From a bacterium (GTDB taxonomy: Bacteria > UBA10199 > 2-02-FULL-50-16 > JAJFLM01), in assembly GCA_965216315.1 (NCBI GenBank), contig CBDCFN010000016.1:736001-800000 (forward strand): DNA of 64,000 nt. Direction: 5' to 3'. Of the stretch, positions 14,769-49,204 are shown one piece after another; position 1 is the first letter of the stretch; each line of letters begins with the position of its first letter. Below the pieces are notes generated by a model. It had not been told where the DNA came from. It worked only from the letters and a program-made list of their open reading frames with translations, and ran no database searches. The position numbers were made by a program, and so were the translations under genes.

Positions 14769-16100
14769 ATGGGATTGGCTCAACAAAAAGAAAAAGTTTC
14801 GCTGCCGGCATGGGTTCCACTGGATCGAGGTGTTCCTAAAGAGGGGCCGCTGTGGTTGCAGGCGCGTCGAGAGGCGGCTCTGACGGCGTTGTCGGAGCGA
14901 GGGTTGCCGACCGCACAAGATGAAGAATGGCGGTATACTTCGATCGCGCCACTTCATAAGTTTGATTTTCGCCCTGATGATTCGGGCCTTTCGGTATTGC
15001 CACACGCGGATACGGATGAGTTGGGCATATCATTGGGAACGGGACCGGAATGTGTTTTTGTGAATGGCCGCTTTCGACCGAAGTTGAGCCGTCGTCTTGA
15101 GTTGCCTGCCGGAGTGCGTATTATTTCACTGAGTGAGGCTTTGAAGACAAGTGACAGTGAACTGGAAGCGCACCTTGCTCGCGCTATTGATTTAAACCAA
15201 CATCCCTTTGCAGCGCTTAACACTTGGCAGTTGGTTGATGGCGCGGTCATTGTTCTCGATAAGGGCGTCGTACTGGATGCACCGATTCATCTTCATTTTA
15301 TTGCGAATGCTCCGGAAGGAGAGATTCTTGCACAACCACGCACGATCATTGTTGCTGGAGAGAACAGTCGGGCGACCATACTCGAATCTTTCGTAGGGGC
15401 GGCGGGTCAGGTTTATTTGACGAATGCCGTTATGGAAGTTTGTTTGAAGCCGGCGTCAAAAATTAACTATTACAAACTGCAGAATGAATCGGAGCGGGCC
15501 TTTCATGTGGCGACTTTGCATGTTGAGCAGGGGACCAACAGTTGCTTCAATGCTTGCACCATTTCCATGGGGGCCGGGATCAGCCGTTATGATACCGATG
15601 TGAAGCAATCAGCCGAGGGGGCGGAATGTATCATCAACGGCTTATATCTCGCGATGGATAAGCAGCATGTGGATCACCATCTGCGCCTTGATCATCTGCA
15701 ACCTCATGGCAGTAGCCAGTTATTGTTTAAGGGCGTGCTCGATCAGCAAGGGCGCGCTGTTTATAATGGTAAGGTTGTCGTCCACGAAGGGGCCTCCGGA
15801 ACTTCGGCCGACCAGACGAATAACAACCTACTATTGTCCTCCGAGGCAGAGGCGGATCCAAAGCCGGAATTGGAAATCTATCACAATGATGTCAAATGTT
15901 CTCATGGTGCCACCGTCGGTCAGCTTGACGAAAAGGCCTTATTCTATCTGCGATCCCGCGGGATCGGTCTGGCTGAAGCGCGTCAGATATTGACCTTAGG
16001 CTTTGCGAAGCAAGTCATGGAGTCAATTGAACTTCCGCGCCTCGAAGCCTACTGCGAATGCCAATTTCTACAACGTTTGGGAGGAATGAGGCATGAATAG
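14769..16100 (+). CDS. sufD: Fe-S cluster assembly protein SufD
   Basis: EEWRYT, NNLLLS, KPELEIY.NDVKCSHGATVG, LFYLRSRGI. Confidence 0.95.
   Translation: MGLAQQKEKVSLPAWVPLDRGVPKEGPLWLQARREAALTALSERGLPTAQDEEWRYTSIAPLHKFDFRPDDSGLSVLPHADTDELGISLGTGPECVFVNGRFRPKLSRRLELPAGVRIISLSEALKTSDSELEAHLARAIDLNQHPFAALNTWQLVDGAVIVLDKGVVLDAPIHLHFIANAPEGEILAQPRTIIVAGENSRATILESFVGAAGQVYLTNAVMEVCLKPASKINYYKLQNESERAFHVATLHVEQGTNSCFNACTISMGAGISRYDTDVKQSAEGAECIINGLYLAMDKQHVDHHLRLDHLQPHGSSQLLFKGVLDQQGRAVYNGKVVVHEGASGTSADQTNNNLLLSSEAEADPKPELEIYHNDVKCSHGATVGQLDEKALFYLRSRGIGLAEARQILTLGFAKQVMESIELPRLEAYCECQFLQRLGGMRHE
16059..16099 (+). repeat. 41-bp direct repeat, copy 1 (sufD end/sufS RBS and start)
   Basis: TGCCAATTTCTACAACGTTTGGGAGGAATGAGGCATGAATA, identical to 16177-16217. 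Confidence 0.95.
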
Positions 16101-16176
16101 CGAGCGACGCGAGCGAGAGGGGGAGGCTCCGTCCGGCTTTGCCGGTGGAGGGGGCGACGCGAGCCCCTATTACGCC
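16100..16176 (+). mobile_element. 77-bp structured mini-element, copy A
   Basis: Lies between 41-bp direct repeats; homologous to the reverse complement of 48935-49010. Confidence 0.75.
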
Positions 16177-16217
16177 TGCCAATTTCTACAACGTTTGGGA
16201 GGAATGAGGCATGAATA
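16177..16217 (+). repeat. 41-bp direct repeat, copy 2
   Basis: Identical to 16059-16099; supplies the sufS RBS and ATG. Confidence 0.95.
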
Positions 16218-17461
16218 ACGCTGTGCCCTCAACGGAAAAAAAATCCTTTGATGTAGCGAGCATTCGTGAGGACTTCCCGATCTTGCAAGACCAAATGAAT
16301 GGCAAGCCACTCGTTTTTCTCGATAATGCGGCCTCTACTCAAAAGCCACAGGTCATGATCGATGCGGAGCAGGAGTTCTATGCGCATCAGTACGCTAACA
16401 TTCACCGTGGTGTTTACAAGTTAAGTGAAGCGGCAACGATAGCGTTTGAGGGGGCACGCAAAAAAGTTCAAAACTTTATCAATGCTCAAGATGCGCGCGA
16501 GATTATTTTTACAAGGTCGACGACGGAGTCGATTAACTTAGTCGCTCATTCGTATGGCCGGTCGAACATCCAGGCCGGTGATGAAGTCTTGATTACCGAA
16601 ATGGAACATCATTCTAACATCGTTCCCTGGCAACTTGTTTGTGAAGAGCAGGGAGCGACCTTAAGGGTGGTCCCGATCAATGATGCCGGTGAGGTGGCCT
16701 TAGCGGACTTTGAGCGCATGCTCACTGACAAGACCCGCATCGTAGCCATCACGCATATCTCCAATGCCTTGGGGACGATCAATCCGGTGAAAGATATCAT
16801 TGAACTAGCCCATAGCCGCAATGTTCCCGTCCTCGTCGATGGAGCCCAGGCGGCTCCCCATCTGGCCCTCGATATGCAAGCCCTGGACTGCGATTTTTAC
16901 GCGTTTTCCGGACACAAGGTTTTTGGGCCGACCGGCATCGGGGTCTTATACGGAAAATATGCGCACCTGGATGCGATGAAACCTTATCAAGGGGGTGGCG
17001 ATATGATCCAGACCGTCACCTTTGATAAGACGACTTTTAAAGAACCGCCGTATAAATTCGAAGCGGGAACGCCGAATATTGCCGGGGCGATTGCACTCGG
17101 GGTTTCACTTGATTACGTGAGCGCCATCGGCCTCGATGTGATTGCTAGTTACGAACAAGATTTACATGATTTTGCGGTGGAGAGTTTGCAACAGGTTCAA
17201 GGTCTCCGTTTGATTGGGACGGCCGCGCGGAAGACGGGACTGGTTTCTTTCGTATTAGCAGGGGCGCATCCTCATGATATCGGCACGATACTTGATAGGG
17301 AAGGAATTGCAATTCGCGCGGGGCATCACTGTGCCCAGCCTGTTATGGATCATTATAAGGTGCCTGCGACCGTGCGGGCTTCTTTTGCTTTTTATAATAC
17401 GCATGATGAAGTGACTGCCCTCGTCAAGGGGCTCGATAAAGTTCGGGAGATACTGGGATAA
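16211..17461 (+). CDS. sufS: Cysteine desulfurase SufS
   Basis: FLDNAASTQKP, EHHSNIVPWQ, FSGHKVFGPTGIG, RAGHHCAQP. Confidence 0.97.
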   Translation: MNNAVPSTEKKSFDVASIREDFPILQDQMNGKPLVFLDNAASTQKPQVMIDAEQEFYAHQYANIHRGVYKLSEAATIAFEGARKKVQNFINAQDAREIIFTRSTTESINLVAHSYGRSNIQAGDEVLITEMEHHSNIVPWQLVCEEQGATLRVVPINDAGEVALADFERMLTDKTRIVAITHISNALGTINPVKDIIELAHSRNVPVLVDGAQAAPHLALDMQALDCDFYAFSGHKVFGPTGIGVLYGKYAHLDAMKPYQGGGDMIQTVTFDKTTFKEPPYKFEAGTPNIAGAIALGVSLDYVSAIGLDVIASYEQDLHDFAVESLQQVQGLRLIGTAARKTGLVSFVLAGAHPHDIGTILDREGIAIRAGHHCAQPVMDHYKVPATVRASFAFYNTHDEVTALVKGLDKVREILG

Positions 17462-48881: not shown

Positions 48882-48934
48882 AATATGGAGACGAGGGGGA
48901 TCGAACCCCTGACCTCGTGAATGCCATTCACGCG
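48882..48934 (-). repeat. 53-bp duplicate of the tRNA-Ala 3' portion plus 4 flanking nt
   Basis: Identical to 49128-49180. Confidence 0.95.
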
Positions 48935-49010
48935 AGCATCAAAGGGGCTTGCGTCGCCCCCTCCAGAAGCAAAGCTCCTGGAGCCTCCCCCTCTCGCTCA
49001 CGTTGTTCGC
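48935..49010 (-). mobile_element. 76-bp structured mini-element, copy B
   Basis: Reverse complement aligns end to end with 16100-16176 and abuts the duplicated segment. Confidence 0.75.
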
Positions 49011-49131
49011 TAAAGAGCGCGTGATAATTTAAAAAAAAGTGATGAAACGATGGGGGGATGTAAGGGGGGAGAGAGTTTTTCTCACCCCCTTACTATAGCT
49101 AAACGGAAGCTGTGCTTTCGTTTAGCGAATA

Positions 49132-49204
49132 TGGAGACGAGGGGGATCGAACCCCTGACCTCGTGAATGCCATTCACGCGCTCTCCCAACTGAGCTACGT
49201 CCCC
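49132..49204 (-). tRNA. tRNA-Ala (GGC); CCA not encoded
   Basis: GGGGACGTAGCTCAGTTGGGAGAGCG...GGC anticodon...GGTTCGATCC; G3:U70 pair. Confidence 0.95.

Follow-up and report, generated by a model that had tools for sequence, protein, structure and literature searches.

A multicopy 77-bp insert between 41-bp direct repeats at the sufD/sufS junction of a UBA10199 bacterium, and its possible relation to insertion with long target duplication

Insertion with long target duplication is a mode of DNA insertion that reportedly goes back to Nobusato et al. 2000. In the sections of Furuta et al. 2010 (PMC2853133) on which we draw, it is described for restriction-modification units, mostly in naturally competent species and with no mechanism attached, and the corresponding part of Lim et al. 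2012 (PMC3457768) has it as not yet recognised for short DNAs. Here we analyse a 64,000-nt stretch of a bacterial contig (CBDCFN010000016.1, positions 736,001 to 800,000; assembly GCA_965216315.1, GTDB lineage UBA10199; the whole stretch is hereafter the window), in which a 77-bp copy of a multicopy, non-coding element separates two 41-bp direct repeats at the junction of sufD and sufS. This insert matches the published category: the repeats exceed 30 bp, the insert contains no transposase, integrase or mobile element, and the repeat length is variable; the genome with a single copy of the repeat is a same-family relative at about 72% identity (G001). As far as the published cases are laid out in those sections, they share with the present one the long repeats of variable length, the lack of a mobility gene in the insert, the frequent position over gene 3' ends and the existence of a related genome with one repeat copy and no insert. 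The published inserts, however, are given there as single, kilobase-sized restriction-modification units with repeats of 46-420 bp, whereas here the insert belongs to a non-coding family of 75-80 nt with tens of copies per genome, most of which are repeat-free.

Several other kinds of elements resemble the insert in part. Integrative elements that regenerate the end of the gene they enter, namely, tRNA and transfer-messenger RNA (tmRNA) islands and the integrase-less cis-mobilizable elements (CIMEs), also come with a duplicated target end, the copies of which differ like orthologues, and their tRNA repeats extend from the anticodon stem as far as the 3' end; here, in contrast, the inserts measure 77-200 bp, lack an integrase and combine one core with many targets and variable repeats. 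Like MITEs (miniature inverted-repeat transposable elements), repetitive extragenic palindromes (REP) and REPINs with a REP-associated tyrosine transposase (RAYT), Correia elements, Rickettsia palindromic elements (RPE) and Chunjie repeats, the element is short, folded, multicopy, located in operon junctions and tolerated in essential operons; some small bacterial repeats provide stops or ribosome sites or are read in frame. Unlike these repeats, it lacks terminal inverted repeats, a duplication of short and fixed length, a GTAG-type palindrome and a linked RAYT or parent insertion sequence (IS), and it occurs across phyla at about 85-98% identity. Unusually long and variable target duplications are also produced by certain IS, such as IS1630, as treated in the same portion of PMC2853133, but those are autonomous DDE elements with inverted ends, and this genome has no DDE match. 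An earlier, sequence-only reading of the window had cited typically short target duplications for DDE IS and MITEs and none for HUH insertions; long, variable ones are already in print for gene-sized inserts and some IS (PMC2853133, in the part used here).

The left repeat (16059-16099) and the right repeat (16177-16217; no strand applies to either) are identical at 41 of 41 positions in the sequence and in the output of the repeat finder, and they enclose the element copy (16100-16176, plus strand), which was delineated by family alignment, covariation and comparison of genome copies. The left repeat includes the final 13 codons of sufD (14769-16100, plus strand; ORF list, protein text and the orthologous junction in the relative) together with a redundant sufS ribosome site and ATG, and the stop of sufD is a TAG, the G of which is the first base past this repeat. 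The right repeat consists of an orphan sufD end and the working ribosome site and start codon of sufS (16211-17461, plus strand; ORF list and protein text). Deletion of 118 bp from the junction, that is, of the insert and one repeat, yields the sufD/sufS overlap ATGAATAA, and in the same-family relative, the overlap is uninterrupted, ATGGCTGA; the distance between the two suf matches of that genome is about 114 nt shorter than in the window. At about 72% identity, this relative, the only sampled genome of the same family with matching suf genes, represents a more distant comparison than a strain-level empty site. Thus, the perfect repeats around a 77-bp insert, the overlap restored by removal of the insert and one repeat, and the intactness of both suf genes, with complete frames in the ORF list, were all read correctly from the sequence. 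The remark that sufD borrows the first base of the element is accurate as to the G at 16100, but the conserved 5' TAG of this copy begins at 16098 and a TAG or CAG triplet is the conserved 5' end of the element, so the stop is not fortuitous. The repeat finder stretches the 41-bp pair to 55 nt at 91%; the added 11 nt, with 4 mismatches, align with the element's own 3' tail, common to other copies. No inverted repeat of at least 12 nt was found within 15500-16800, as expected from the proposed lack of terminal inverted repeats, and the two motifs singled out in the earlier reading each occur twice in the window and in none of 100 shuffles.

The public sequencing runs were examined as assembled contigs. 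Contigs from two of them (X1 and X2) cross the repeat-to-element boundary (16070-16144) and the element-to-repeat boundary (16145-16206) without mismatches and at the depth of the flanks, whereas one contig from a third (X3) omits exactly 118 nt, an ambiguous observation that may be a path artefact of 31-mer graphs meeting a 41-bp repeat and so is no proof of an empty allele. The arrangement of duplication plus insert at sufD/sufS is confirmed as real. One X2 contig links the 3' end of the element back to its 5' start (16098-16172; depth 4.9; shorter side 34 nt); this joint could reflect tandem copies in some other member of the sampled community or a circular form, and no tandem element pair exists in this genome.

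Short-word BLAST with the 77-bp insert detected 40 loci in the 2.96-Mb genome, where the family amounts to about 38 copies, which bears out the prediction of a non-coding, multicopy element. The copies are about 75-80 nt long and consist, from 5' to 3' in the alignment, of a TAG or CAG triplet, hairpin 1, a G-rich box, hairpin 2, hairpin 3 and an A/T-rich tail of 8-11 nt in which stop triplets are usually present. Hairpin 1 has the form GCGAGC-loop-GCGAGC with two G-A mismatches, or fully complementary variants thereof; hairpin 2 is long, with a variable top; hairpin 3 comprises 5 bp and a 7-nt loop, and its invariance is no evidence of constraint given that the search pattern demanded it. The G-rich boxes are Shine-Dalgarno-like (GGAGG). 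Hairpin 2 covaries: 98 sequence-pair cells are changed on both sides, compared with 17.8 in shuffles (none of 500 as high), and controls slid along the alignment fall far below the true register. The base pair that varies is G-U in 24 instances and A-C in only 2, which suggests that it is one particular strand that folds. The element is, accordingly, strongly structured, with three hairpins, one of them covarying. The family consensus has dissimilar ends and no terminal inverted repeats, and a short, fixed-length target duplication is not seen. Rfam covariance models gave no match over 16098-16176 at E-values up to 10, and the two element copies in the window returned only a tRNA and a sub-threshold tmRNA match at an orphan tRNA piece. 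Paper searches, with subscription journals outside their coverage, retrieved no description of the family, which is apparently undescribed, as had been surmised.

Long repeats around the copies were sought by local alignment of the left flank against the right flank, with 400 random places as the null (median 9, 99th percentile 12, and one outlier caused by a genomic repeat). In this genome, 9 of the 36 copies found with the search pattern score 25-62; one of the nine was excluded because the match stems from an adjacent copy of a different repeat and does not reflect a target duplication, and one copy missed by the pattern, with a 59-bp repeat, was added, so that long abutting repeats flank 9 of 37 copies. 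Among the other named genomes, 111 of 124 copies had sufficient flank; 12 of these score at least 20, and 10 of the 12 start 8-15 nt past the last conserved box, but one place is counted twice among the ten, so that the distinct places number 9 of 110. The earlier reading had named flanking repeats at other copies as a check: such copies do duplicate gene ends, but at these frequencies the duplication is a feature of a minority. The repeats are 17-85 bp long and vary between events, the right one invariably begins 8-15 nt after the last conserved box, and the duplicated pieces are always gene ends or junctions, be it of a protein gene, a tRNA or tmRNA. They include three protein-gene junctions (sufD/sufS, nuoC/nuoD and hisA/hisF), two gene starts (smpB and an M16-peptidase-like gene), one gene end (a uracil-DNA-glycosylase-like gene), the 49 nt at the 3' end of tRNA-Ala(GGC) and likewise of tRNA-Ala(CGC), and the 58 nt at the 5' end of tmRNA.

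At all five element-bearing protein-gene junctions, a reading frame leads from the duplicated start through the element and stops 0-5 nt from the real start, whichever way the element is oriented. At sufD/sufS, this relay frame (16093-16218, plus strand; 41 codons by translation) is the only reading frame over the 77-bp insert, and its TAA shares bases with the real sufS ATG in the manner of the original junction; at the four others it ends with a 5-nt gap (nuoD), TGATG (hisF), ATGA (the peptidase gene) or a 1-nt gap (smpB). The chance of a matching frame is, by our estimate, roughly one in four per case, and the five of five suggest that only frame-compatible insertions survive. Crude ORF calling around 177 copies shows that the first triplet of the element is the stop of the upstream ORF in 8 copies, a convergent ORF ends inside the 3' tail in 23, and a downstream start lies 8-10 nt past the last hairpin in 15.

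Where the two copies of a repeat have diverged, the differences are codon-phased and lie almost exclusively at third codon positions. A frame-free periodicity test on 16 diverged pairs places 58 of the 80 differences in one codon phase per pair, against a null mean of 43.3 (standard deviation 2.5) and 0 of 100,000 simulations reaching 58. Six-frame codon counts of 11 pairs in the gene's own frame give 45 synonymous and 7 non-synonymous differences, four of the latter located 5' of the start codon; the frame was taken from flanking long ORFs for seven home-genome pairs and, for four pairs from other genomes, was the stop-free one ending an ORF, a partly circular choice. In the remaining five pairs, which have no clear frame, the best frames give 11 versus 10. 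The synonymous to non-synonymous counts are 8:0 for nuoC, 3:0 for hisF and 5:0 for a pair from another locus (L005). The two NuoC tail copies encode the same 16 residues despite the 8 synonymous differences, and both carry a threonine where the seven sampled relatives that were read have proline. A drifting pseudo-copy should show mostly non-synonymous changes and indels, so the repeats are not simple decaying duplications. Two possibilities remain: either one of the copies was recently part of a working gene in a close lineage, or both are under selection. Several pairs also show a mosaic of an identical stretch followed by a diverged one.

The earlier reading placed the mobilising enzyme outside the window; indeed, there is no candidate in the window and no classical transposase in the genome. 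In this genome, 98.3% complete, RVT_1, IS110 DEDD, TnpB, DDE_Tnp_1, rve and Cas1 each have 0 matches, and there is neither a longer copy with a reading frame nor a split pair of 5' and 3' halves around one, so the search for longer, enzyme-bearing copies that the earlier reading proposed came back empty in this genome. Five tyrosine-recombinase matches are present (two Xer-like, two phage-type and one partial), but no integrase lies beside any copy of the element. The genome has one Y1/HUH gene, the flanks and ends of which are free of the element, and the homologues of which are found in 71 of the 93 class genomes: they are frequent in element-free families (f8, 13 of 13; f4, 12 of 14; f15, 5 of 5), rare in the element-rich family f9 (1 of 6) and missing from several element-rich, nearly complete genomes. 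This distribution over 93 genomes rules out the Y1/HUH gene as the partner of the element. REP/REPIN sequences mobilised by a RAYT were rejected on the same grounds, a MITE for want of terminal inverted repeats, a fixed short duplication, a long copy or a DDE match, and a SINE-like (short interspersed nuclear element) target-primed retroelement in view of the 0 matches to RVT_1.

The element occurs in 41 of the 93 genomes of the class, clustered by family, and a scan for the exact pattern with one genome per species found at least 120 places. Among the matches listed, most are in metagenome-assembled genomes (MAGs) labelled Nitrospirota, others are in MAGs labelled Syntrophorhabdus, Syntrophus/Syntrophobacterales, 'delta proteobacterium', Bdellovibrionales, Ignavibacteriales and Patescibacteria, and one is in a Syntrophorhabdus isolate, on a scaffold of 3.2 Mb. 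The labels of MAGs may be erroneous, and it is the isolate scaffold that provides the firm cross-phylum case; the identity across phyla is about 85-98%. Viral contigs, plasmids and phages gave no element match. At guaB/guaA and at nuoC/nuoD, this genome alone has the element in the junction (1 of 30 loci each), and these are thus lineage-specific insertions; 21 of the 29 other guaA loci come from genomes that hold the element elsewhere. Copies thus undergo turnover within lineages rather than being long-inherited features. Spread via orthologous sites was considered and rejected, as the comparison of flanks with flanks gave few shared places, and these between close MAGs only. The orientation of the element relative to the neighbouring genes is mixed, the two orientations being about equally common, and co-orientation with the leading strand (26 copies yes, 12 no) is weak and confounded by gene orientation.

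Additional arrangements were noticed among the copies. In some MAGs (L021, L107, L134, L135, L138 and others), copies lie head to tail 84-92 nt apart or are partial, and the close MAGs L049 and L134 are distinguished by a 102-nt deletion inside one copy. In this genome (G000), one copy is in frame within the upstream extension of the ORF for a cytochrome-b-complex subunit (contig C16, 1619143-1620057, minus strand) and could be included in the translated protein if the true start codon lies far enough upstream. The guaA genes of G089 and G090 (L208:540-720 and L209) contain in-frame, GC-rich inserts of about 95 nt that differ from each other and from the element; they add about 32 residues without stops and resemble repeats read as protein loops.

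A second copy of the element in the window (48935-49012, minus strand), identified by motif matches, sequence and annotated layout, is part of a composite next to a tRNA gene. The order along the minus strand within 48882-49204 is tRNA-Ala(GGC) (49132-49204), a sequence that we denote module A (49013-49127), the element, and an orphan piece with the last 49 nt of the tRNA plus 4 nt; these 49 nt plus 4 nt make up a 53-bp direct repeat, with the left copy at 49128-49180 and the right copy, directly after the element, at 48882-48934 (all minus strand). The layout at tRNA-Ala(CGC) is identical, and both tRNA-Ala repeats span the anticodon stem to the 3' end. At tRNA and tmRNA sites, module A, of about 115 nt, separates the gene from the element; the roughly 80-nt core of this module forms a distinct family of about 25 copies, unrelated to the element, and 14 of these are within 15 nt of a tRNA or tmRNA gene. 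No integrase is adjacent to the tRNA and tmRNA copies, and at tmRNA the duplicated end is the 5' and not the 3' one. Two members of the module A family away from tRNAs also have abutting repeats, one of 45 bp covering the secA start and one of 41 bp at a different gene; at secA, the frame ends about 25 nt short of the real start. Likewise, a second set of the last approximately 40 codons of the single Y1/HUH gene (L210:1141-2211; contig C16, about 1212847-1213917) lies downstream of an unrelated, tandemly repeated insert of about 290 nt. The family A and HUH-gene cases therefore indicate that junction duplication is not peculiar to one element. As further observations on these sites, module A and the element also stand together beside tRNA-Ala(TGC), tRNA-Ile, tRNA-Leu(TAG) and the tmRNA gene; four of the six composites are at alanine-type RNA genes; the last hairpin together with the orphan tRNA piece (48883-48961, minus strand) gives a sub-threshold Rfam tmRNA match (29 bits against a cut-off of 47); and the G-rich box of the element resembles the 5' end of this genome's tmRNA.

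The explanation that we put forward, and consider equally apt to prove right or wrong, is that the sufD/sufS insert is a young copy of a non-autonomous element that folds as a single strand, and that duplication of the junction lets insertions between coupled genes survive. The element would fold into three hairpins and land flush against gene ends; at overlapping or coupled genes, the surviving insertions would be those in which the whole junction is duplicated (41 bp here, 17-85 bp elsewhere). Under this scheme, sufD would keep its end and stop on the TAG of the element, sufS would keep its ribosome site and ATG, and the relay frame would lead ribosomes from the copied start codon across the element to the sufS start proper. 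The duplication might arise during insertion, by host replication or repair acting on a single-stranded copy (staggered-break fill-in or template switching), probably with no classical transposase involved; we favour this route because there is no visible transposase, the repeat lengths vary and young copies exist that are repeat-free. Filled junctions could later pass between close lineages by homologous recombination with a crossover inside the repeat, so that the orphan copy would be the recipient's own, recently working gene end; such exchange is our proposed reason why diverged pairs differ almost only at synonymous sites, and the identical-then-diverged mosaic of several pairs fits it. 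The wider proposition, that cross-phylum, transposase-free elements are copied as single strands by host machinery, with junction duplication, a relay that preserves coupling and recombination that renews orphan ends, is offered as a tentative and, on balance, doubtful one.

Several results weigh against this explanation. The codon-phased differences are unlike those expected from plain target duplication followed by neutral decay, and their attribution to recombination is, in our view, conjecture. Most copies have no detectable long repeat, even one that is 97% identical to the sufD/sufS copy, so that a long duplication is not an obligatory product of insertion and may be a separate or occasional event. 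The folding energy of the sufD/sufS copy is no better than that of shuffles (z = 0.04; about 0 on both strands), and hence it is the covariation that carries the claim of structure. The search for empty alleles succeeded to the extent of the uninterrupted overlap in the same-family relative, but an exact 24-nt scan of metagenome contigs gave no match to a strain-level empty site, and among close strains neither a polymorphic empty site nor an intermediate was found. Finally, no enzyme was found, and strong conservation across phyla sits uneasily with the lack of a visible partner or vehicle. Overall, the interpretation given in the sequence-only reading is partly supported.

The main rival holds that gene ends are replaced: the element would travel with a copy of the target end, as an attP-like segment or a small circle, and integrate site-specifically or by a single crossover, so that one repeat would come from the donor and the other from the host, as in tRNA and tmRNA islands. 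Integration that restores the end of the target gene is familiar from phage 21 and e14 in icd. This would account for the codon-phased signal, that is, for repeat differences that are exclusively synonymous (nuoC, hisF, L005 and others), and could draw on the two phage-type integrase genes of the genome as well as on the tRNA-Ala repeats, the anticodon stem-to-3' end span of which is described as typical of integrase sites in the part of PMC2853133 on which we rely. It does not account for one core with at least 10 unrelated targets in one genome and repeats of 17-85 bp, where a site-specific enzyme should have one target; moreover, no integrase is next to any copy, most copies are repeat-free, and the residue common to both NuoC tails and absent in the sampled relatives requires a very close donor. 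Thus, we consider replacement unlikely, even if it is the most serious competitor.

Mobilisation of a miniature IS derivative by an enzyme supplied in trans, either a transposase whose target cuts are long and variable in stagger (IS1630/IS1634 type) or an HUH enzyme, appears improbable. IS1634 and IS1549 make much longer repeats than IS1630, the ends of the element are defined, and a fold specific to one strand would be in keeping with an HUH enzyme that acts on single strands; for some IS, target duplications of great and variable length are indeed known, e.g., 19-26 bp for IS1630 (PMC2853133, same portion). The element, however, has no terminal inverted repeats and, in this genome, no longer copy with a reading frame, the genome has no DDE_Tnp_1, rve, IS110 or TnpB match, and the Y1/HUH gene is unrelated to the element in distribution and element-free in its flanks and ends. 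Alternatively, the element could be a useful RNA or DNA module, such as a portable stop, ribosome site or processing signal, that is selected and spread by recombination, with the duplications being ordinary tandem ones. The extreme conservation of the boxes, their resemblance to Shine-Dalgarno sequences, the relay frames, the starts located 8-10 nt past the last hairpin (15 of 177) and the stops used at either end (8 and 23 of 177) speak for such a role, but the two orientations relative to genes are about equally common, the occupied sites differ between genera, there is no Rfam match, and separate tandem duplications would not be expected to abut the element ends exactly; we regard this alternative as quite improbable. 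An assembly artefact, in which the many genomic copies gave rise to a misassembled repeat or insert, might be suspected from the multicopy nature of the element and the X3 contig that skips 118 nt, but it is extremely improbable in the face of mismatch-free junction contigs in two runs at flank depth and the same architecture at many other places and in other assemblies.

If the explanation that we favour is true, insertion with long target duplication, documented for gene-sized DNA, extends to an abundant 75-nt family, and, with dozens of independent events per genome, its mechanism becomes tractable. The junctions show a route by which selfish DNA enters essential, coupled operons and RNA genes (suf, nuo, his, tRNA and tmRNA) without harm, the duplication supplying the stop codon, the start region and the relay frame. 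For genome annotation, such insertions account for orphan fragments of gene ends and tRNAs that are usually taken as integration scars, and the codon-phased differences between the repeats possibly report recombination between lineages at these sites.

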